From a virus (Duplodnaviria > Caudoviricetes), in IMG/VR virus record IMGVR_UViG_3300005805_000424, positions 1 to 25,966 of that record: 25,966 nt of DNA; one strand, written 5' to 3'. Positions 8,404-25,966 of the stretch are shown one piece after another (position 1 is the first letter of the stretch; each line of letters starts with the position of its first letter). A program made the position numbers and the translations under genes. The notes beneath the pieces are model-generated. The model had not been told where the DNA came from. It saw only the letters and a program-made list of their open reading frames with translations, and made no database searches.

Positions 8404-8868
8404 TTACATGTGCAAGATATCAGACGGATCATTTAGGATCCCGATAATCTCGTCGTCGTTCAAAATGCGTATCTCGCCACCATCTATCGAGATACGGGAA
8501 CCTGCGTAACGCCCAAAGATAATCCAATCCCCTTCCTTGCACCAAGGGCCGTGAGGGAATTTGCTTTCATCGCTATACGCTAAATCACCCATCTTCAACA
8601 CATAACCACATGTGGTGGCCAGTTGTGTACGCTTTTGGGTTTCTTCAGCCAAAACGATACCGCCTTTGGATTTTTCTGCACCACGGTACGGCAAGATGGC
8701 AATACGCCATCCTGTAGGATTGGGAATCCTATCCATTACCTCGTTTTGAATCTTAGAGGGATCAAACTCCCCGTCCGCAGAATATGCGTCATCCAAACTC
8801 GGTCCGCGATCCGCGGCCTCTTGTTGCCACTTACGTTCAAGTGCAGTAAGTGTTGCGTCAGCTTCCAT
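8404..8868 (-). CDS. groES: Co-chaperonin GroES (Cpn10) homologue
   Basis: 'P.GWRIAILP....EKSKGGIVL.E......GYVLKMG...CKEGDWIIFGRYAG..I.IDGGEIRILNDDEIIGIL' is the Cpn10 signature including the GGI mobile loop. Confidence 0.9.
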   Translation of the reverse strand: MEADATLTALERKWQQEAADRGPSLDDAYSADGEFDPSKIQNEVMDRIPNPTGWRIAILPYRGAEKSKGGIVLAEETQKRTQLATTCGYVLKMGDLAYSDESKFPHGPWCKEGDWIIFGRYAGSRISIDGGEIRILNDDEIIGILNDPSDILHM

Positions 8869-12105: not shown

Positions 12106-13377
12106 TTAACCACCACCAGAATCGTTATACCAATAGTTTTGTTCTTGGTACTCTGGTGAGTTTAAAATGCTTTGCCGTATCTCTTCTTCCGACGCGTTTC
12201 TATTTGCAGCGATACCTGTTGGATCAGGAGCACGGCCCAGTAACTCTTGATACAAGGCCTCTATCCCCCCAATGTTGGGGTTTTGTGCTTGGTATTCTGG
12301 AGATGCGGCAATACTTTGGCGAATAACCTCGTCGGACTGCCCTACATTTGCAGCAACTCCTGTCGGGTCAGGGGCACGACCGAGCATTTCTTGGTATATG
12401 TTGGCAATCCCCCCACCAGGCGCTCCCGCACCTGCTCTTGCTTGATACTCAGGCGAGCTTAAAATGCTTTGGCGGATTGTTTCTGCAGAAGCGCCTTGAT
12501 TTGCTGCAAGCCCCGTTGGGTCAGGGGCACGACCTAGCAACTCTCGGTATAGTTGCGTAATAACGTCCGCGCCCACACCCGGTGATCCCGCTACAGGGGC
12601 GCTGGCGCCCGCAATCTTTTTCTTGTACTCATCCGAAGCTAGAATGCTTTTGCGGATTGTATCAATTGAAGCACCCTTATTTACAGCAAGACCTGTTGGG
12701 TCTACTTCTCGCCCTAACAACTCCCTGTACAAACGTGCTATGTCCGCCGTGCTTGCAGCGGCGGCGGCACCCGTTGATCCCACCACAGGGGCAGCCGCAG
12801 CACCTGCGCCAGACCTGCCGCTTATGTTACGTAAGCTTTCCGCTATCCTAGCGTCTTCTTGACTCTTCGCTGCATACTGTGCTTGGGAGGTAGCCTCCAT
12901 GGCACGTCGCCTTGCAGCACTATTCTCCGCACGAATAGCCTCGGTAAGTGCTGCTTGACGTGTGTAAAAATCATTGGCCGTGTTGTCCGCCGCTGTAGGC
13001 GTTCTTACTTGGGGAACGGGGACATTAAAGTCATAAATACTTGACCCAGTCGATCCAAAGGAAGGCTGTTGCACTAAAGGTGGTGCCGGCAAAACAGGGG
13101 AAACAGCCGCAGGCGACATGGATCCAAACATCGGACGCGGTGCCCTAAGCCCTGCGATGTCCGTGTTTAACGCCCCAAAAGTCGGCCTAAGCGCTCGGGG
13201 AGTAAAGGGAGTAGGTGTAGATGAAAGAAAGGCAAGAGGATCAGCGCTCTGCGCAGTAGGCAACGCGGTTTCTTCTACCAAACCGCCGTCTGCATATCCC
13301 ACCGATTGTTGTTGCAAAGGCGTTAAATCCTTCGCTCTACCTAACGCATCTAACATCATGCGAGAACGCGTATCCAT
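12106..13377 (-). CDS. 423-aa protein with four C-terminal DUF4214-like repeats
   Basis: Four copies of LY(R/Q)E(L/M)LGR(A/E)(P/V)DPTG.A.N...S.(E/D).IR.SI..S(P/D)EY; Pro/Ala-rich N-terminal half. Confidence 0.75.
   Translation of the reverse strand: MDTRSRMMLDALGRAKDLTPLQQQSVGYADGGLVEETALPTAQSADPLAFLSSTPTPFTPRALRPTFGALNTDIAGLRAPRPMFGSMSPAAVSPVLPAPPLVQQPSFGSTGSSIYDFNVPVPQVRTPTAADNTANDFYTRQAALTEAIRAENSAARRRAMEATSQAQYAAKSQEDARIAESLRNISGRSGAGAAAAPVVGSTGAAAAASTADIARLYRELLGREVDPTGLAVNKGASIDTIRKSILASDEYKKKIAGASAPVAGSPGVGADVITQLYRELLGRAPDPTGLAANQGASAETIRQSILSSPEYQARAGAGAPGGGIANIYQEMLGRAPDPTGVAANVGQSDEVIRQSIAASPEYQAQNPNIGGIEALYQELLGRAPDPTGIAANRNASEEEIRQSILNSPEYQEQNYWYNDSGGG
12145..12740 (-). repeat. 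Intragenic tandem repeats (4 x about 38 aa)
   Basis: Repeat visible in protein and DNA (GGGTCAGGGGCACGACC occurs twice on the + strand). Confidence 0.85.
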
Positions 13378-13407: not shown

Positions 13408-13437
13408 ATTGTATACCTCAATAGTACTCAGGTACAA
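13408..13437 (-). promoter_or_regulatory. Possible sigma70-like promoter for the repeat-protein/portal genes
   Basis: TTGTAC (13437-13432) - 18 nt - TACAAT (13413-13408), spanning the terL stop. Confidence 0.4.
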
Positions 13438-15919
13438 CCCCCGCATCTGAACTCGCCTCCTCCGCCTCATCGGAGTCCAGAGCAATAAAATTCCCCGTCC
13501 TAAACCGCATCCACGCCTGTACCGTACTGTCCACTTGGTCGTCATTGTCCCCGTTCGGGAATGCCGCGCACTCCTCGACCAACTCCTCGGCCCAATGCTC
13601 GTCAGGCGCCCACACCATCCCCGCCTCCAAAATAGGCGCCACCGCGTTGGCTCTAGAAACCTTGTCCTGCCCCGCTCGTCTGCCCCCAGGCGCGTACATC
13701 GTCACAGGAATCCCCACGCGCCGCAGCTCCTGCTGCAAAGTAGTTCCCGTCGCCTTCGCCTCAATCAGTACATTGTCAGGATTCCAGTACTTGTACTCCG
13801 CAATCGCCACCCGTTTGAGCTCAGGAAAGTCCCACCGACCGCGCTTGACGGCCAACAAGATAATGTTTGGCCCATCGTCCGCACTGGGGTAAAACACCCC
13901 CCACGTCGTAATCACAGAAAAGTCCGCCGTCTCCTTCTTGGAGTACGCCGTGTCGTAGCTCTGGATAATATACTCCACAGGGGGAGGCTCACTTTGCTGC
14001 CACACGCGCCACCACTCGCGCTTGAGAATCGCCCCCTCATCGGCCGTCGGGCGCTGCTGGTACATCGCATTCCACTTCTGCACGGACAGCGACGCGCGAA
14101 CCCCCTCCAACTCCTCAAGCTTCCAGAACTCCGGCCACAACGCGCGGCCACTGGGCAAGATAGCAGGAAACTCAATTACCTCCCACTGATCCGCATTCTT
14201 TCCCTGCTGTGACTTCAATAACCTAGCCGTCAGATCCTTGGTCCCCCATCGGGTCATAACCACCACAATCGCCCCGCCTGGCTGCAAACGTGTCCGTGGA
14301 CCCGAGCTATACCACTCCCACGCATTGTCCAACGCTAACTCACTCATCGCATCTTGCTCCGAGTGCGGATCATCAATCACCAAGACATCCGCGCCACGCC
14401 CCGTCATCGCTCCACCCACACCCACCGCAAAATACTCCCCTCCCTTATTCGTGTCCCACCGACCCGCCGCCTTGCTGTCTTGCTTCAACAGAACACCAGG
14501 GAAAATCTCCTTGTACACGTCCGTGTCCATCAAGTCGCGCACCTTCCTGCCAAAACGCACCGCTAACTCGCCATTGTGCGTCGCCTCAATTGCCTTGGTC
14601 CGCGGATCACGTCCCATCAAAAAAGCTGGCAGAAGATAGGATGCAAATTCGGATTTTGTGTTGTGAGTACAGATGTATCCTTCACCTGCCAAGAACAACC
14701 CATCCTCCCGATCCACCTTAATGCATTGCGTATCTCCGGTACAACCAAGCTTTCTAATGCGAATGTATCTGCCAAAAGTACGCTCACTTTTTAGGGTTCG
14801 CTCTTCTTTGCGGGGAAGGAAGCAAATGTTGCTGGCATAGAAAGAAATTTTCCAAGAATTGCCATAAGACTTGTCTCCGATCTTTGCCTCTGACACAAGG
14901 ATATTGGCTTTAATTCCTAGGCTCCGGATAAGCTCTGCCGCTTGGTCAATAAATGCCCGATTGCTCTGTGCAAAGAAACACTGGCCTTTTTTGGATATAT
15001 TCCCATCTGAATCCATTAGCCCTTTCAACAAGTCACGGCGCTGGCTTTTGCTCGCCGTCATGTACGCTGCAGGAATATGCTTGTTGCCCAATACGCCAAG
15101 ATCACGCAGTTTAACTTTAAGACCAAGAATGCCAAACGTCATTTTTGTAGACTGATCTGTTGTGGCATAGCCTCGACGCTCAACTTCAGGACGTATAAAT
15201 GCGGCGTCCTCGTCGTGTGACGTAATAATTCCATTATCTTTGTGTCCGTCACCTAACCATAGGCCAAGCACATAGGGGTCTATAGGCAGGTCTGCTTCTG
15301 CATATTGAACAGGCAAACAATCAGGCAATCTCGGAAGCCGTGGCTTTACCATGTGAATGCCTTTAATAAACTCTACCTCTCCCGATCTCTTGGTTCTCAG
15401 AACTTCGCCATTCTGCCGACGCCACAATTGTTCTGTGGTGTAGTCATGGTAAACGGAACCTTTTCTGTCAAGCCGGACAGTCCACAGGTGCTCGCCGTCC
15501 ACGTCAAGGTAAGTATTATCATCCGTCCAAACGCGATATAACTCCCTGTCCTTAAAGACCTCAGACTTCCCCAAAACCTTAACAGGGCATCCGTCAGGAC
15601 CAAAGACAAAGTCTCCTGGCTGCAGGTTTGCCATCGTTTTAAAACCGCTTGTGGTAGGTATTTTCATATCCACCATTATAGCATGTCTTGGAGGCATGTT
15701 CACAATCAACCGCTTTAACGTCCCATTGGCAATCCTGTCAAACGCATCAGCCATAATCCGGTGATGCTCACCAAGAATCGCGGCCGGCCAGACGTATTTG
15801 ACAAAGTCGATGAAGTGCGTACGCGCCTTTTCCTGCGCCTCCAACATCTGCAGACGCAACTCTAGCCGCAGCTTCTCAGCCTCTAACTCCGCCCCATGAC
15901 CGCTACGCATAGTATTCAT
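13418..15919 (-). CDS. terL: Terminase large subunit, intein-containing
   Basis: Walker A PPRH/TKS (split by the intein), 'TGRGADVLVIDDP' Walker B, 'VMTRW', nuclease motifs 'QSYDTA', 'IEAKATG', 'FPNGDNDDQVDS'; start ATG 15919 preferred to GTG 15940. Confidence 0.95.
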   Translation of the reverse strand: MNTMRSGHGAELEAEKLRLELRLQMLEAQEKARTHFIDFVKYVWPAAILGEHHRIMADAFDRIANGTLKRLIVNMPPRHAIMVDMKIPTTSGFKTMANLQPGDFVFGPDGCPVKVLGKSEVFKDRELYRVWTDDNTYLDVDGEHLWTVRLDRKGSVYHDYTTEQLWRRQNGEVLRTKRSGEVEFIKGIHMVKPRLPRLPDCLPVQYAEADLPIDPYVLGLWLGDGHKDNGIITSHDEDAAFIRPEVERRGYATTDQSTKMTFGILGLKVKLRDLGVLGNKHIPAAYMTASKSQRRDLLKGLMDSDGNISKKGQCFFAQSNRAFIDQAAELIRSLGIKANILVSEAKIGDKSYGNSWKISFYASNICFLPRKEERTLKSERTFGRYIRIRKLGCTGDTQCIKVDREDGLFLAGEGYICTHNTKSEFASYLLPAFLMGRDPRTKAIEATHNGELAVRFGRKVRDLMDTDVYKEIFPGVLLKQDSKAAGRWDTNKGGEYFAVGVGGAMTGRGADVLVIDDPHSEQDAMSELALDNAWEWYSSGPRTRLQPGGAIVVVMTRWGTKDLTARLLKSQQGKNADQWEVIEFPAILPSGRALWPEFWKLEELEGVRASLSVQKWNAMYQQRPTADEGAILKREWWRVWQQSEPPPVEYIIQSYDTAYSKKETADFSVITTWGVFYPSADDGPNIILLAVKRGRWDFPELKRVAIAEYKYWNPDNVLIEAKATGTTLQQELRRVGIPVTMYAPGGRRAGQDKVSRANAVAPILEAGMVWAPDEHWAEELVEECAAFPNGDNDDQVDSTVQAWMRFRTGNFIALDSDEAEEASSDAGVVPEYY
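14660..15682 (-). mobile_element. Intein (341 aa), Ala1 / class 3 signature, with LAGLIDADG homing endonuclease
   Basis: Removing AIMVD...ICTHN restores MPPRH-TKSEFASY; block B 'DGEHLW', block C 'LGLWLGDG', block E 'LKGLMDSDG', block F 'TQCIKV', block G 'THN/T'. Confidence 0.93.
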
Positions 15920-16246
15920 GGCGCAAATAATATCACGCACCGCGGAGCGCGAGGCAAGAAGAACGGCTCAAGGATCACGGCTCAAGGGCAAAAGTCATTT
16001 GCGTTTGAATTTTGCAAAAAATTTTGGGGAAATCGTTTATAGAACAAAGGGGGAGGGTTCACGGATCAAGGGGCTAAGGTCGCTTTAGTCATTTGCGATT
16101 CGGCGCTAATATTTTGTGCGAAATAGGGCTTAAGCTGCCGCTAGGGAAAAAGGGGGGCTATTTTGCGGAGTGAGTGCTAACTAACCTAGGGTAAACCCGA
16201 AGTGCTCAAGGTACCCTGAGGGTTAACCCTGAGCCAAGCGCCTAGG

Positions 16247-21321: not shown

Positions 21322-21579
21322 CTAAACCCTCCTCACAATCCAAATCCCATCCTCTTGCCCCTGCCGGACAGTAAACCGCCTTGTCGGGTAACGACGATAA
21401 AACGATTTTAGTGCGCTTCTAATATTTTCCACTTCAACAGGCGACTCACACAAGAAGTAGTCCCCGCGTATCATGGACTTGAACGGATATCTAATCCTTT
21501 TGCTTGTCGAACTTCGACGCATGTAGTGCTGTTTTTGAGTAATTCCAACCAGCCCCACAACCTCATCTCTTACAGGCAT
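21322..21579 (-). CDS. Small basic putative DNA-binding protein (85 aa)
   Basis: 'YPF..M..GD.F..........RSA..........F.VR......I...RV' pattern; GGAGG RBS. Confidence 0.7.
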   Translation of the reverse strand: MPVRDEVVGLVGITQKQHYMRRSSTSKRIRYPFKSMIRGDYFLCESPVEVENIRSALKSFYRRYPTRRFTVRQGQEDGIWIVRRV

Positions 21580-21604
21580 TTCAACCTCCTTTCCGAGTAT
21601 CCAA

Positions 21605-21635
21605 GTAGAGTATCCTACTCTACCCCTTTTAGCAA
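21605..21635 (-). promoter_or_regulatory. sigma70-like promoter overlapped by an 8-bp inverted repeat
   Basis: TTGCTA (21635-21630) - 17 nt - TACTCT (21612-21607); GTAGAGTA-tcc-TACTCTAC palindrome at 21605-21623. Confidence 0.45.
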
Positions 21636-21661
21636 TCTTTTCGAAACCAATTATTCAATTC

Positions 21662-21874
21662 TATTAACGGATACTTCCCACGAAAAAAAAAAAAAAAAGT
21701 AAAAAATGAGACCGCGCGCGCACCCCGTAAAAACATCACCCCTCACGTTTAAATAATCCTTTGTGTAATAAAAGACCCGCATAAACACTAGCTCTTCACG
21801 TCATTACGCCCTTACGGATACTTTTTGTTCAAAAAAATAATTTCATTTTTTTTCGTGGGAAGTATCCGTTAATA
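21662..21874. repeat. 29-bp perfect inverted repeat pair; origin-like region
   Basis: TATTAACGGATACTTCCCACGAAAAAAAA (21662-21690) and its exact reverse complement (21846-21874). Confidence 0.85.
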
Positions 21875-22035
21875 TAAGGGGCCAGACGTAATAATCCTGT
21901 TTTCCCAAATTTCAACGTAATAATTTTGCCGCTTCGCGGTCCGCGGTCCTTGACCCCTTCTCCTATCTCATTCTCCGCCCTCCGACCCCCTTTTTCCCCT
22001 CCTTTTTGCCCCTGCTTCGCAGCCCCTCTTACGTG

Positions 22036-22065
22036 TTGTACATTACACTACGTTTGTGTTATATT
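22036..22065 (+). promoter_or_regulatory. sigma70-like promoter for the nuclease-methyltransferase operon
   Basis: TTGTAC (22036-22041) - 18 nt - TATATT (22060-22065) with extended -10 TG. Confidence 0.5.
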
Positions 22066-22098
22066 AAATACCATTACTAACAACTTCTTGGGGTTGTA

Positions 22099-22503
22099 AT
22101 GGAAGAAAAAAAGCCTTGTTCAAAGTGTAAGGAAGACAAATTTTTATCTTTTTTTCACCGCAGTACAAAAGCATCTGATGGGCATGCTTCTTGGTGCAAG
22201 ACATGTGTTAATGGTTTTGCCAGGCAATCAAGAAAGCGCACGTATTTTCCTGAAAATAAAAGAAAGTGGCAGCTTAAAACACGTTATGGACTGACTCCTG
22301 AAAAGGTTGAAACAATTTTGGTTAAACAGCAACATCAGTGCGTATTGTGTTTAAGTTCTTTAGATAAATTTCACATTGATCATTGCCATAACACAGGTCA
22401 GGTTAGGGGTATTTTGTGCCACAAATGCAATATTCGACTAGGGGGTTGGGATGATCTCCAATGGCGTAACAAAGCTTTATCTTATCTTGGGATTCACGTA
22501 TGA
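22099..22503 (+). CDS. Recombination endonuclease VII-family (His-Me) nuclease, probable homing endonuclease (134 aa)
   Basis: N-terminal CxxC...CxxC, 'YGLT', 'Q...CVLC', 'HIDHCHNTGQVRGILCHKCN..LG'. Confidence 0.88.
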   Translation: MEEKKPCSKCKEDKFLSFFHRSTKASDGHASWCKTCVNGFARQSRKRTYFPENKRKWQLKTRYGLTPEKVETILVKQQHQCVLCLSSLDKFHIDHCHNTGQVRGILCHKCNIRLGGWDDLQWRNKALSYLGIHV

Positions 22504-24461
22504 AATTCATTTCAATCTGTTCTGGTATTGAGGCTGCGAGCGTGGCTTGGGAGCCCCTTGGTTGGGAGGCGGTGGCTTTTTCTGAGATTGAGCCGTTCCC
22601 GAGTGCTGTTTTGGCTCATCACTACCCTGACGTTCCTAATTTTGGGGACATGACGAAGTTTGATACGTGGCCAGAGGAGATTTTTCTGGAGGCGGATTTG
22701 ATTGTTGGTGGTCCACCCTGCCAAGCTTTTTCTGTGGCGGGAAATCGTGAGGGCTTGGCGGATGACCGAGGCAATCTGACGCTTGTGTATGTACAACTTA
22801 TCAATCACGCTGATTTAATTAGGAAAAAGCATGGAAAAGAACCAGTTATCGCTTTTTATGAAAACGTCCCCGGACTCTTCTCAGACAAGACCAACGCATA
22901 TGGCTGCCTTCTTGGAGCGCTTGCCGGAGAAGATGGTGCGCTCCTCGCTCCAGGGGGCAAATGGACAGACGCTGGTTGCGTGTCTGGTCCCCAAAGAGCA
23001 ATGGCGTGGAGACTCTTGGACGCCCAATACTTCGGCTTGGCACAACGTCGCAGACGTGTGTTCCTTGTCGCAGGTGCTGGAGACGGGTTTAATCCCGCCG
23101 AGATTCTTTTTGAGCGAGAGGGCGTGCGCAGGGATTTTGCGCCGAGCCGAGAAACGGGGCAAGCGGTTGCCGGAACAATTGCAGCGCGCTTTGGAGACGG
23201 TGGCCAACCGACTGGAGGCGTAGGAGTAGCGCACGTTGCGCCTACCGTTACTGGTGGGCCTCCTTTTAGTCGCACAGGCAATGAACGCGTGGAATGCGAT
23301 GCCCTCGTAGCGACCACTGTTATTGGAAACGTGGAGGGCGGGGCGGCCACTACCCTGTCTTCACGGGAGTACAAGGGCTTGTCTTGTGGGCGCGACGGCA
23401 TGACGAGTGCGGCGGTGGTGTATGAGCCTATTGCCCTTGCCATCCCGATCCATGATCAGGCCACGCGGTTCGCGGGCAAGCGTGGGGACAAGCAAGATGG
23501 CAAGGGCAATGGACTGGGGATAGGTGAGCCCGGAGCCCCGATGAACACGCTCACCAAGGGGGATCGCCATGCGGTGGCGCATGCCATACCTCTTGACCTA
23601 CGCAATGCGGGTCGTGATCCAGAGAAGTATGACGCAATCAACCGTCAAGGCGTGGGGGTCGGTGAGGCGGGTGATCCATCACACACTATTACGTCCGCTT
23701 TTGTGCATGGCGTGGCGCAGTCTGTTGAATCAACGCCTGATACCTTGTATAATAAAGGTATCAAACAAGGGGAACATGATGCCTGCACACAAGAAACCTA
23801 CGCCGGAACGCTATTGCGAACATTGCTCCAAGAGGTTGGAGAGGAAACTTTTGCCAAATGGGGACTTGGAATATTTAATTCACTTCAATCGTCGGAAATA
23901 TTGCGGGAGAAGCTGCATGGCAGCGGCTTTCGACCTGCGACATTCTCCCGTAGTTGGGTGGTCTACTGCACATTATCACGCAAGGAAAATGGTTCCTGCT
24001 GGTTGTTGCAATCGTTGCTCGAAGCCGAATGCCCTCGATGTACATCACAAGGATGGAAACCATCTGAACAATACGCTAGAGAACTTGGAGCGTATTTGTC
24101 GGGGTTGTCACAACCTGGAGCACAGTCGCAGAGGTTCTTGCAAGATTTGTGGCAAGCCGCAGAAGGGTTTGGGCTACTGCGAGAAGCATTATCAAAGATT
24201 CAAGAAATGGGGCGACCCTTTAATGGTCAAACACAACCAGTTTTCTCCAGCATGCAAGTTAGACGATTGACCTGCGAAGAATGTGAATTTTTACAGGGAT
24301 TTCCACGCGGTTACACCAACATCCCGTGGCGTGGCAAGCCAGAGGCGCCTGATGGTCCGAGGTACAAGGCGCTTGGTAACTCATGGGCGGTACCGAACGT
24401 GCGTTGGATAGGCGCGCGTATTGATCAATATTTGAAGGCACCGAAAGGAGAAGTGAAATGA
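22500..24461 (+). CDS. C5 cytosine DNA methyltransferase (653 aa) with expanded variable region
   Basis: Motif I 'CSGIEA', IV 'GGPPCQAFS', VI 'ENVPG', VIII 'QRRRRVF', IX 'RRLT..ECE.LQGFP', X 'YKALGNS'. Confidence 0.93.
   Translation: MKFISICSGIEAASVAWEPLGWEAVAFSEIEPFPSAVLAHHYPDVPNFGDMTKFDTWPEEIFLEADLIVGGPPCQAFSVAGNREGLADDRGNLTLVYVQLINHADLIRKKHGKEPVIAFYENVPGLFSDKTNAYGCLLGALAGEDGALLAPGGKWTDAGCVSGPQRAMAWRLLDAQYFGLAQRRRRVFLVAGAGDGFNPAEILFEREGVRRDFAPSRETGQAVAGTIAARFGDGGQPTGGVGVAHVAPTVTGGPPFSRTGNERVECDALVATTVIGNVEGGAATTLSSREYKGLSCGRDGMTSAAVVYEPIALAIPIHDQATRFAGKRGDKQDGKGNGLGIGEPGAPMNTLTKGDRHAVAHAIPLDLRNAGRDPEKYDAINRQGVGVGEAGDPSHTITSAFVHGVAQSVESTPDTLYNKGIKQGEHDACTQETYAGTLLRTLLQEVGEETFAKWGLGIFNSLQSSEILREKLHGSGFRPATFSRSWVVYCTLSRKENGSCWLLQSLLEAECPRCTSQGWKPSEQYARELGAYLSGLSQPGAQSQRFLQDLWQAAEGFGLLREALSKIQEMGRPFNGQTQPVFSSMQVRRLTCEECEFLQGFPRGYTNIPWRGKPEAPDGPRYKALGNSWAVPNVRWIGARIDQYLKAPKGEVK
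22831..23223 (+). CDS. Alternative-frame methyltransferase beta subunit-like protein (M.EcoHK31I-beta type, 130 aa)
   Basis: Nested in the +1 frame; AGGA RBS 6 nt before the ATG; 'KTSPD', 'W..N', 'CSLSQVLET...P.RFFLS..AC.GILRRA..RGK.LP' motif. Confidence 0.7.
   Translation: MEKNQLSLFMKTSPDSSQTRPTHMAAFLERLPEKMVRSSLQGANGQTLVACLVPKEQWRGDSWTPNTSAWHNVADVCSLSQVLETGLIPPRFFLSERACAGILRRAEKRGKRLPEQLQRALETVANRLEA
23725..23773 (+). promoter_or_regulatory. Internal promoter, operator-like palindrome and RBS for the nested HNH gene
   Basis: TTGAAT (23725-23730) - 17 nt - TATAAT (23748-23753); perfect 9-bp inverted repeat TGATACCTT/AAGGTATCA (23738-23763) around the -10; AAGGGGA RBS at 23767-23773. Confidence 0.75.
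23776..24270 (+). CDS. HNH endonuclease nested in the +1 frame of the methyltransferase (164 aa)
   Basis: 'CNRC...DVHHKDGNHLNNTLENLERICRGCHNLEH' HNH core plus Zn-finger-like CEHC..CGRSC and CKIC..GYCEKHYQR..KWGDP; start ATG 23776 or 23779. Confidence 0.85.
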   Translation: MMPAHKKPTPERYCEHCSKRLERKLLPNGDLEYLIHFNRRKYCGRSCMAAAFDLRHSPVVGWSTAHYHARKMVPAGCCNRCSKPNALDVHHKDGNHLNNTLENLERICRGCHNLEHSRRGSCKICGKPQKGLGYCEKHYQRFKKWGDPLMVKHNQFSPACKLDD

Positions 24462-24661
24462 GCCGAATTATTACGCCTACAAGCCCCCGTAAGGACACCT
24501 TCTTGACTTTGCGGGTGACGGAGGCCTTCCGTGAGGACTTGGCCATGTTGGCTGAACAGTCGTTGAGGAGCGTGAGCTCACAGGCTTTTTATTACATTCA
24601 GCTTGGCATGCAGTACGAAGCGCGTCTTAACCTGTCCTCTGAGCCCCCAGAAGCCCCGTAG
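24458..24661 (+). CDS. Ribbon-helix-helix (Arc-like) DNA-binding protein (67 aa)
   Basis: 'FLTLRV...FREDL..LA....RSVSSQ...YI' pattern; ATGA coupling and AGGAG RBS. Confidence 0.7.
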   Translation: MSRIITPTSPRKDTFLTLRVTEAFREDLAMLAEQSLRSVSSQAFYYIQLGMQYEARLNLSSEPPEAP

Positions 24662-24687
24662 CGGCGTTTTGCTGCCCCAGAAGCACT

Positions 24688-24730
24688 AAGCCCTGCCTTT
24701 TGCCGAAAGCGGCGTGGCGGGGCTTTTACT
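24688..24730. terminator. Terminator-like hairpin between convergent transcription units
   Basis: AAGCCCTGCC...GGCGGGGCTT stem with inner GCC-GAAA hairpin, followed by TTACT on the + strand. Confidence 0.55.
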
Positions 24731-24789
24731 TGTTTATTGGTTTTGTGGGGTGTGAGCCTCGATAAAGCACGATTACGAATCAAAGAAAA

Positions 24790-24945
24790 ACTACGCTCAG
24801 GCGGCGAAGAGTGCAGGTGCCTGCCAAGGTACCTAGGTTGCTTATACCGCCCTCACGTCCAGGCGGCTAAGACCTGGTGCTCACATGGCTAGTGCCTGTT
24901 GCCCAAGCGCCAGACATGTAAGCCCCCGTCTTTCCGGGGTGTCAG
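24790..24945 (-). ncRNA. Candidate structured non-coding RNA
   Basis: Consecutive hairpins with G-U pairs and GAAA/GCAA loops on the minus strand; no convincing ORF. Confidence 0.4.
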
Positions 24946-24987
24946 TAAAACGCGGGGGTTTGAACTAAGGAGGTTCGTTTCACGTGT

Positions 24988-25224
24988 TTATTCTACGACT
25001 TTTTTTGGTTTGCGGGTGTACTTCTTGGCGGCCATGATCCCCGAGTCGTGGTCCGTGATCCTTGATGCGTTTTCGCGGCGCGCGGCTCGCTCCTCTACCA
25101 TGGCCTCTGCGATGTCGTAGGCGTATTCTGCTAGTTCGCTGATTAAGGGGGTGCGGGTATCGGAGTTCAGAAGCCCTTGCAGGGCGAGGGCAGCGAAGAA
25201 GTCGGTCAGGTCTTCGTCATTCAT
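24988..25224 (-). CDS. Small helical phage protein, 'D(F/Y)FA..A(L/M)QG' family (78 aa)
   Basis: 'LTDFFAALALQGLL...AEYAYDIAEAMVEER'. Confidence 0.75.
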   Translation of the reverse strand: MNDEDLTDFFAALALQGLLNSDTRTPLISELAEYAYDIAEAMVEERAARRENASRITDHDSGIMAAKKYTRKPKKVVE

Positions 25225-25408
25225 TATTTCTCGCTTTTAGCATGACATCTGCAATCGAATATGAATTGTCAGCAATTTCTACCCAATTGTGAATATTGTT
25301 TTGAGTTAAATATCCTTGCATAGCCGCCGTTGCGAAGTAATCCCGCAAGGTCATACCTTCAGCCATGTCTGTTTCTCTTTTCCATGTAGGAAATGCAGGT
25401 TGGTTCAT
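25217..25408 (-). CDS. Small helical phage protein, 'GMTLRDYFA' family (63 aa)
   Basis: 'PAFP...GMTLRDYFATAAMQG...SYSIADVMLKAR'; GAGGAG RBS. Confidence 0.8.
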   Translation of the reverse strand: MNQPAFPTWKRETDMAEGMTLRDYFATAAMQGYLTQNNIHNWVEIADNSYSIADVMLKARNNE

Positions 25409-25731
25409 TTGTTTGTCTCCTCGATGAGTTTGTCTAAGTAGTGTCGTGCCTTTTTTAAATCTTCAAGCCCGTGCTTTTCTTTCCATCGCGATACGTACTT
25501 GACTACGTTGCCTTCTAGATAGCCAAGGTTATTCGCAATGATGTAATCCCAGGGCTGAATAGCTTTGTTCTGGTAGTGGTCACCTCCTACCTGTCTGTCG
25601 TTAGCGGCGGGCTTAGCTGCAGTTTTAGCAATCGCCGCGTGTACTTGATCCTTGATACTTGCTCGTCGTTCTTCTTCGGCTTCCATGCTGTGGTTCCGAT
25701 TGTATACATCTTGTAGTGGTGGGTAACTCAT
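25405..25731 (-). CDS. DUF3310 (SaV-like / T7 gp1.7-related) protein
   Basis: 'QVGGDHY....IQPWDYI....LGYLEGNVVKYVSRW..K.GLEDLKKARHYLDKLI'; ATG 25731 couples to the upstream TGA and follows AAGGAG. Confidence 0.85.
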   Translation of the reverse strand: MSYPPLQDVYNRNHSMEAEEERRASIKDQVHAAIAKTAAKPAANDRQVGGDHYQNKAIQPWDYIIANNLGYLEGNVVKYVSRWKEKHGLEDLKKARHYLDKLIEETNK

Positions 25732-25966
25732 ACGGCACTCCTTATCCATGAAGCCGCTATATCACATCGGGGGAAGGGTAATGGTACTTCTGTGGCCATG
25801 CTTTGTGTAGACCTGTAGGTTTTAAGTGGACGTTCCGCGTCCTCGCCGTCCCCCCAAGCGTACTTCCTGATAAGCACGCCCCTCTTAGTTCTTGCCCAAG
25901 CGCAGATGTGTACTCGCCGAAACTTATACAGCTCGGACAGCACGGCCGCTACGGTCGCAACGGACA
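25728..25966 (-). CDS. Hypothetical protein, 5'-truncated by the window edge (possible winged helix)
   Basis: Frame is open from the right edge (SVATVAAVLSELYKFRRVHICAW...KYAWGDGEDA..P). Confidence 0.6.
   Translation of the reverse strand, partial: SVATVAAVLSELYKFRRVHICAWARTKRGVLIRKYAWGDGEDAERPLKTYRSTQSMATEVPLPFPRCDIAASWIRSAV

Follow-up and report, generated by a model that had tools for sequence, protein, structure and literature searches.

We have studied a phage gene for a C5 cytosine methyltransferase (MTase) in IMG/VR virus record IMGVR_UViG_3300005805_000424 (Duplodnaviria; Caudoviricetes), and find it probable that this gene hosts a homing endonuclease gene of the HNH type. The HNH gene would be overprinted in the +1 frame before motif IX of the MTase, with the host enzyme translated straight through it and neither RNA nor protein spliced. 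The stretch analysed, positions 1 to 25,966 of the record, is referred to here as the window; it is a linear phage fragment of 26 kb that includes capsid and terminase genes as well as small genes of early type. The evidence comes from the two reading frames of the insert, from its relatives and from the insert-less alleles of the same MTase family.

The insert and its two reading frames

The MTase frame is uninterrupted over 653 codons and contains the motifs PCQ, ENV, QRRRRVF, RRLT and GNS (Table 1). In the structural model the enzyme core has a predicted local distance difference test (pLDDT) score above 90, and the fold matches M.HhaI with an E-value of 3e-11. As the initial annotation of this DNA had stated, some 528 nucleotides between HGVAQS and MQVRRLT stay open in this frame. 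The alignment with insert-less alleles that it had called for places the boundaries. When the C-terminus of the window's MTase was used as the query, 79 of 80 IMG/VR loci were without the insert, their variable-region module being joined directly to M[QA]VRRLT. One of these 'empty' loci, L120, reads HGVAQT-MAVRRLT across the junction, which gives an insert of 528 nucleotides. Among elements with 97% identity in the MTase frame, the shared sequence starts only at 'PDTLYN' (a comparison at the protein level only), so the 5′ edge may lie at about 23733, and the −35 hexamer described below is probably outside the conserved element. The insert is more AT-rich than the preceding variable region, as had been noted (47.5% GC against 61.2%), but not more so in any marked way than the window as a whole (48.6%). 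The record contains a single copy of the element.

In the +1 frame the insert encodes the complete zinc-finger/HNH protein that had been annotated there. It has an N-terminal CxxC pair, a core of the form CxxC-HH.D..N..N-CxxCH and a C-terminal zinc finger, and its TGA stop is indeed formed within the motif IX codons TTG-ACC of the host. In an alignment of 32 sequences the residues C14, C17, C43, C47, C78, C81, C108 and C111 are invariant, as are H90, H91, D93, N98, N103, H112 and H116, which leaves the beta-beta-alpha-metal motif intact. The domain is recognised by PHROG 1271 (E 3e-13) and by Pfam HNH_3 (E 6e-5, below the curated cutoff). The HNH model has a pLDDT of 88.8, and its residues 57-118 align with HNH folds by VIA-align at middling Z-scores (4.5-5.2). 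The top match is the modification-dependent EcoKMcrA (Z 5.2, root-mean-square deviation 3.2, 58 aligned residues), tied with other HNH folds. A Foldseek search with the model gave no PDB match at E ≤ 0.001. With this result and the middling alignments, no specific homing family can be assigned from structure.

The open MTase frame is not a product of chance, since synonymous recoding of the window's HNH gene creates 8.0 MTase-frame stops on average and none with a probability of 1e-4. Over the HNH match, the MTase frame is free of stops in all 47 of the closest IMG/VR loci and in 4 distant ones, whereas all 29 weakly related HNH matches from the same search have at least 2. Further loci scoring above 70 bits are stop-free in 68 of 73 cases. 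After removal of duplicates, partial matches and distant members we retained 85 nested loci, among which two pairs are still near-identical. The initial annotation had named frequent MTase-frame stops in homologous insertions as grounds for giving up the idea; they occur in 0 of these 85 loci. A T at the wobble position ahead of AA, AG or GA would create a stop in the MTase frame; such a T is found at 0 of 2718 positions in the nested loci, compared with 2666 of 6986 (38%) elsewhere and 29 of 107 in the three members that are free-standing.

Selection was estimated from 27 disjoint pairs at p ≤ 0.3, with transitions and transversions kept apart; an earlier pooled all-pairs dN/dS (the ratio of non-synonymous to synonymous rates) was dropped, being non-independent and made without separating the mutation types. 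In the HNH frame omega is 0.13 for transitions and 0.07 for transversions, the purifying selection that had been expected. Mere stop avoidance had been expected in the MTase frame, and this proved too modest: for changes that are silent in HNH, the MTase-frame omega is 0.56 for transitions and 0.44 for transversions (p 7e-6 and 0.02), and 0.39 on the 12 closest pairs. The overall range of 0.39-0.57 compares with 0.93 and 1.37 for the same statistic on the single-coding motifs I-IV, our best-powered control. Smaller controls range from 0.53 to 1.41, none of them significant. Conservative MTase-frame changes (L/L, I/V and M/V, 0.26-0.27) are also accepted more readily than radical ones (L/F 0.07, R/W 0.09, R/G 0.09). 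For one HNH Asn, 61 of 61 sequences use the codon AAT, so that the Trp it creates in the MTase frame is fixed.

AlphaFold models the MTase-frame insert with helices; the pLDDT reaches 60-76 at residues 431-460, and most of the remainder is below 60. The peptide has no usable match in the ESM Atlas, none in PHROGs, and in Pfam only DUF3243 below the cutoff. The N- and C-terminal MTase parts of insert-bearing ('filled') alleles have non-synonymous to synonymous ratios of 0.04-0.10, against 0.03 in empties; the flanks are thus constrained like those of empty alleles, which is consistent with the predicted activity of the enzyme. The notion of a translated loop in the host enzyme therefore stands in part. 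Unspliced read-through is supported by the 85 stop-free loci, the constrained flanks and the lack of an intein or intron signature. The amino-acid selection makes the insert more than a passive loop, and we infer a segment that is compatible with the host and in part structured, not a neutral loop.

Motif IX, distribution and expression signals

In empty alleles motif IX reads RRLTP.ECERLQGFPD, and five more empty loci (four of them distinct) that were found independently agree. The ECER residues are intact in 71 of 75 empties, whereas 0 of the 79 filled alleles whose motif IX can be recognised have kept them; the main 83-row clade of our tree gives 54 of 57 and 0 of 26, respectively. In filled alleles C is changed to A, T or V, E to F, S, A or C, and R to F, I, A, L or T, or bases are inserted. 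So many different losses are not predicted by linkage to one ancestral variant. The pattern is the one expected if the nuclease cuts the ECER codons and its carriers need co-converted immunity, which we infer from the alleles. Three empty alleles (L095, L136 and L130) have a filled-type motif IX (ECES, ECEA and ECET, respectively); these are possibly immune, with the HNH gene lost or never taken up.

The insert is widespread but patchy. In the MTase frame it falls into 108 protein clusters, nearly all with the C5-MTase Pfam domain, and a scan of genome contigs had few family members among the matches listed. Distant members are nested in Dcm-type hosts, also in the cultured phages CUB-EPI_14 and phiKX1; in Staphylococcus phage CUB-EPI_14 the gene is annotated only as a methyltransferase. 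An insert 97% identical to the window's is present in five database proteins whose MTases are 78-95% identical to the window's MTase. On a quick tree of the MTase core (catalytic N-terminus, 91 rows, 34 of them filled, 44 of 88 branches open) the filled/empty label changes 15 times, with at least 5 changes forced by starred branches. The distribution over host alleles is disjunct, and host recombination confounds it. Two further arrangements are worth recording: L041 and L328 have a second HNH copy in another frame, about 830 nucleotides upstream of motif IX in the same MTase region, and P0153 has an in-frame HNH_3 domain plus the dual-coding insert.

Some filled alleles carry a stop codon inside motif IX. 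Among the 79 there are ten, eight with the form CTY-stop-CTB, one with CTT TAA C CTT and one with another 7-nucleotide insertion, and L330 is a further filled locus with a 7-nucleotide insertion. A scan of IMG/VR for the 6-nucleotide form found 7 contigs, 6 with HNH and one without a profile match. The stops (L032, L036, L038, L040, L041, L265, L271, L283, L285, L290, L295, L324, L326 and L330) are nearly always placed between Leu codons by a 6- or 7-nucleotide insertion and occur almost only in filled alleles; the motif IX of the window's own allele has none. In two pairs of loci that share the same motif IX stop there is no T at 21 and 21 risk sites, even though safe sites differ at 15 of 64 and 12 of 47. 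This suggests that the MTase frame of such alleles is probably still read. These insertions are candidate sites for ribosomes to hop over a short distance, or to make a +1 shift, within the predicted target. Alternatively, these alleles may be dead genes or the result of recent recombination.

Upstream of the HNH start we examined signals for expression. The near-consensus promoter that had been annotated, TTGAAT-17-TATAAT (23725-23753), is present, and its −10 element is conserved. The −35 is not, and of the 3 promoter-like sites in 21500-25966 this one is the best, against 3.8 such sites in shuffled sequences. The perfect 9-bp inverted repeat around the −10, TGATACCTT/AAGGTATCA, is also there; one of this length arises in 11 of 1000 shuffles of the insert, and the whole window holds 8. 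Taken alone, the promoter match and the inverted repeat are each weak. Relatives add to them. A −10-like hexamer precedes the HNH start in 35 of 81 loci, compared with 23 of 914 control windows and 0 of 79 empties (shuffle mean 9.4). It mostly lies 25 nucleotides upstream, with a Shine–Dalgarno sequence, or 7-8 nucleotides upstream, in a leaderless-like arrangement; a fair −35 accompanies it in only 12. The ribosome-binding site noted initially is found before the second ATG.

The core of the repeat is kept in relatives: CCTTK-N6-MAAGG is found in 39 of 84 upstream regions and 4 of 565 controls, and the enrichment is specific to a spacer of 6. In L262 the palindrome occupies the spacer of a perfect TTGACA-16-TATAAT promoter. 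It looks like an operator and is a predicted binding site, and autorepression by the HNH protein, of the I-TevI type, is a plausible prediction by analogy. A DNA site is preferred because the spacer is fixed, the inner pair is G/A in 17 of 38 and at most one G-U occurs at the three innermost outer pairs. An RNA hairpin, to which some compensatory pairs in the outer arms would point, is less favoured. We rejected the idea of a phage-wide motif, the window having one perfect and two one-mismatch sites where 4.0 are expected. An Arc-like ribbon-helix-helix gene overlaps the MTase stop (24458-24661, plus strand) and is a candidate palindrome binder.

Competing readings and surrounding genes

The homing account can be put together as follows. 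The HNH protein would be expressed from its own internal promoter, and its expression damped at the palindrome, over the −10 or between the −35 and the −10. During co-infection it would nick or cut an empty allele in the conserved motif IX codons, approximately GAG TGC GAG CGC, a target of about 12 nucleotides located 25-40 nucleotides beyond the insertion point. In the ensuing repair the insert would be copied, and with it a changed motif IX that is now resistant to the nuclease. The 176 residues added to the enzyme would lie where the variable region ends, a region tolerant of insertions and splits, and would have been adapted to form a compatible segment that is partly helical. A fuller version, with a complete splicing-free homing cycle, an overprinted and selected host segment, and a motif IX recoded in every carrier, in several lineages through a hopped or shifted 6-7-nucleotide CTY-stop-CTB, is one that we put forward tentatively and regard as rather doubtful in its entirety.

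Several observations weigh against homing into a fully translated host. The filled label is still clustered on the tree (15 changes against 27.7 when shuffled), and since these MTases recombine freely a patchy tree is no proof of homing. Because motif IX adjoins the insert, part of the ECER association is explained by linkage alone. Some filled loci, moreover, come from distant subfamilies of the host enzyme, in which the native form of motif IX may be a different one. The ten stops inside motif IX, together with breaks upstream of the insert, mean that not every carrier is a simple full-length enzyme. Such breaks were flagged in up to 14 of the 64 filled loci with the N-terminus in view, at least two of them (L039 and L295) being artefacts of the regular expression used, against 5 of 67 empties. 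The palindrome and the −10 are each missing from more than half of the loci. Two small transversion controls fall below 1 (0.53 and 0.63, not significant), and most of the AlphaFold insert is of low confidence (34-76 in 10-residue blocks).

The best of the alternatives, although an unlikely one, is that the HNH protein is a fixed or hitch-hiking accessory nuclease, acting for example against competing phages or modified DNA, and moved only by ordinary recombination among mosaic MTase genes, without homing. The variable region is visibly mosaic even among close relatives, and the best fold match, tied as it is, is a modification-dependent enzyme. Of five members with MTase-frame stops, L278 and L293 lie away from any MTase seen in their loci. 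The other three are still beside or inside a C5-MTase gene, L292 and L164 directly after one and L303 splitting one before motif IX, and ECER has been lost in filled alleles by many independent routes, neither of which fits this alternative. A split intermediate would be a plausible route into the nested state, as C5-MTases have their variable region between motifs VIII and IX and tolerate splits there (PMC3404938).

Less likely again is a two-chain enzyme like M.AquI, with translation of the C-terminal part beginning anew at the Met that precedes motif IX and the insert being read through incidentally. Such a Met is present immediately ahead of motif IX in the window (MQVRRLT) and in most empties, a gut-type clade has a Shine–Dalgarno-like GGAGG and an ATG there with the upstream frames broken, and natural and engineered C5-MTase splits work (PMC3404938). 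L303 is truly split, but it has 11 stops in the frame concerned, and incidental read-through leaves unexplained both the 0 of 2718 stop-making wobbles and the amino-acid selection in the insert.

Removal of the insert by some unrecognised RNA or protein splicing is the least credible alternative: unusual phage introns exist (one is cited in PMC11855218), but no Rfam intron family matches at E ≤ 1 in 21500-25000, no Hint domain was found in the MTase protein or the insert, the insert ends in FSS before Met, with no C-terminal His-Asn or +1 Cys, Ser or Thr (in line with the initial report of no intein terminal motifs), the HNH open reading frame (ORF) and promoter fill the whole of it and end inside host codons, and RNA splicing would not select on MTase-frame residues.

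A third product of the locus had also been claimed, namely a beta subunit. A conserved overlapping ORF of 130 residues does exist inside motifs VI-VIII: the +1 frame is free of stops there in 105 of 114 loci, against 5 of 113 upstream controls, and tblastn finds matches in 164 GenBank phage records. Three products from the MTase locus are therefore plausible from the pattern of open frames. As in M.EcoHK31I alpha/beta (PMC2836561 and PMC3404938), the second polypeptide is in another frame within a C5-MTase gene. There the beta chain supplies motif IX, which defines it; in the window motif IX is in the main MTase frame and the overlapping ORF is without it, and we rejected a true EcoHK31I beta. 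In L022, L024, L032 and L290 the variable region and insert continue, after motif VIII, in the frame of the beta-like ORF and downstream of its stop. This frame switch recurs and could reflect error, decay or recoding.

Table 1. Features of the MTase locus, in coordinates of the window.
Feature	Position	Strand	Remarks
Phage C5 cytosine methyltransferase, 653 aa	22500..24461	+	Single frame from motif I to motif X; PF00145 E 6e-34
Conserved +1-frame ORF, 130 aa	22831..23223	+	Inside motifs VI-VIII; beta-like position, without motif IX
Mosaic variable region	23121..23723	+	Interval of motifs VIII-IX; GC 61%, disorder predicted
Dual-coding insert, 176 MTase-frame codons	23724..24251	+	Residues 409-584; uncertainty of about 9 nt at the 5′ edge
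−35-like hexamer TTGAAT	23725..23730	+	Apparently absent from 97%-identical elements
Palindrome, operator-like	23738..23763	+	Core CCTTG-N6-AAAGG (23743-23758); encloses the −10
−10 hexamer TATAAT	23748..23753	+	
Shine–Dalgarno-like AAGGGG	23767..23772	+	6 nt before second ATG; GGAG-type motifs there in several relatives
HNH ORF, +1 frame	23776..24270	+	ATG 23776/23779 to TGA 24268-24270; relatives start at second Met (23779), 163 aa
Motif IX, filled form RRLTCEECEFLQGFPR	24261..24308	+	Supplies HNH stop; probably the altered, immune target site

Elsewhere in the window, an Endonuclease VII-like ORF (22099-22503, plus strand) overlaps the MTase start by 4 nucleotides and is possibly a second, free-standing homing endonuclease at the MTase gene. 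A perfect 29-bp inverted repeat (21662-21690 and 21846-21874, about 155 nucleotides apart, ending in an A/T run) occupies the non-coding gap separating divergent gene blocks, a possible origin or control region. On the minus strand, the terminase large subunit (13418-15940, 840 residues) has a LAGLIDADG domain inside it, probably an intein. The structural block includes a 423-residue protein (12106-13377, minus strand) with repeated DUF4214 and sigma70_r3-like matches and a Cpn10 co-chaperonin gene (8404-8868, minus strand).

Relation to known systems

The arrangement had been put forward as a new strategy, a claim that is not supported. Arsenault, Gosselin and Gogarten (PMC11855218, 2025) describe the ShiLan domain and the Pacc40 gp60 insert, out-of-frame HNH genes in actinobacteriophage DNA methylases, in computational work that notes no in-frame stop, intein or intron and proposes a tolerated loop. 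Another such case is mentioned in PMC12613952. ShiLan and the present insert share a phage methylase host, a stop-free host frame, a zinc-finger-flanked HNH in the alternate frame, a patchy spread and an altered residue near the site in invaded alleles. However, the ShiLan HNH scores 0.6 bits against the present family profile and gives a BLAST E-value of 0.08, which amounts to no detectable homology. The ShiLan gp65 host has the DPPY motif of an amino-methylase, in place of the C5 motifs found here, and the ShiLan gene is in the +2 frame with a GTG start and no ribosome-binding site, as opposed to the +1 frame, ATG, −10 and Shine–Dalgarno sequence here. The present family thus represents, as judged from sequence, the same strategy in a distinct and widespread element. 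Our literature search found no paper on this C5-MTase insert family, with subscription journals mostly outside its coverage.

Comparable solutions are known from other systems. Free-standing homing endonucleases of the T4 type, with I-TevI autorepression and Aeh1 mobE as examples (PMC2988022), have their own promoter with an operator or hairpin, as is predicted here, and gain immunity by co-conversion of the cut site, which parallels the proposed motif IX change. Those genes lie in introns or between genes, or split their host, whereas the present HNH is overprinted on a continuous host frame. In T4 the HNH enzyme MobA lies beside gene 60, where a small target-disrupting insertion is skipped in translation and blocks nicking (bioRxiv 10.1101/2022.08.31.505936); the CTY-stop-CTB relatives parallel this. 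The bypass in gene 60 is structured and 50 nucleotides long, while our relatives have 6-7 nucleotides and a putative recoding, and the window allele is without it. A cyanobacterial dnaX intein (bioRxiv 10.64898/2026.09.14.751524) likewise has a dual-coding homing endonuclease and purifying selection in the alternate frame. That enzyme is a LAGLIDADG endonuclease carried by a splicing intein; the present one is an HNH without an intein signature.

In its accessible text, the ShiLan account left open the read-through of the host, the expression of the HNH and the cut site, and it reports no selection analysis, which is provided here for the present family. The family offers comparative answers to these questions: stop exclusion that is near-absolute, selection on the overprinted frame, a conserved −10 with an operator-like palindrome, and a predicted target. 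What is added to the published kind is the selection evidence, the predicted target and a candidate mini-bypass. If true, the CTY-stop-CTB hop would be a minimal analogue, occurring in nature, of the bypass in T4 gene 60. Dual-coding inserts of this type are a blind spot for annotation, and the present one provides a dated model for the origin of de novo protein sequence by overprinting.

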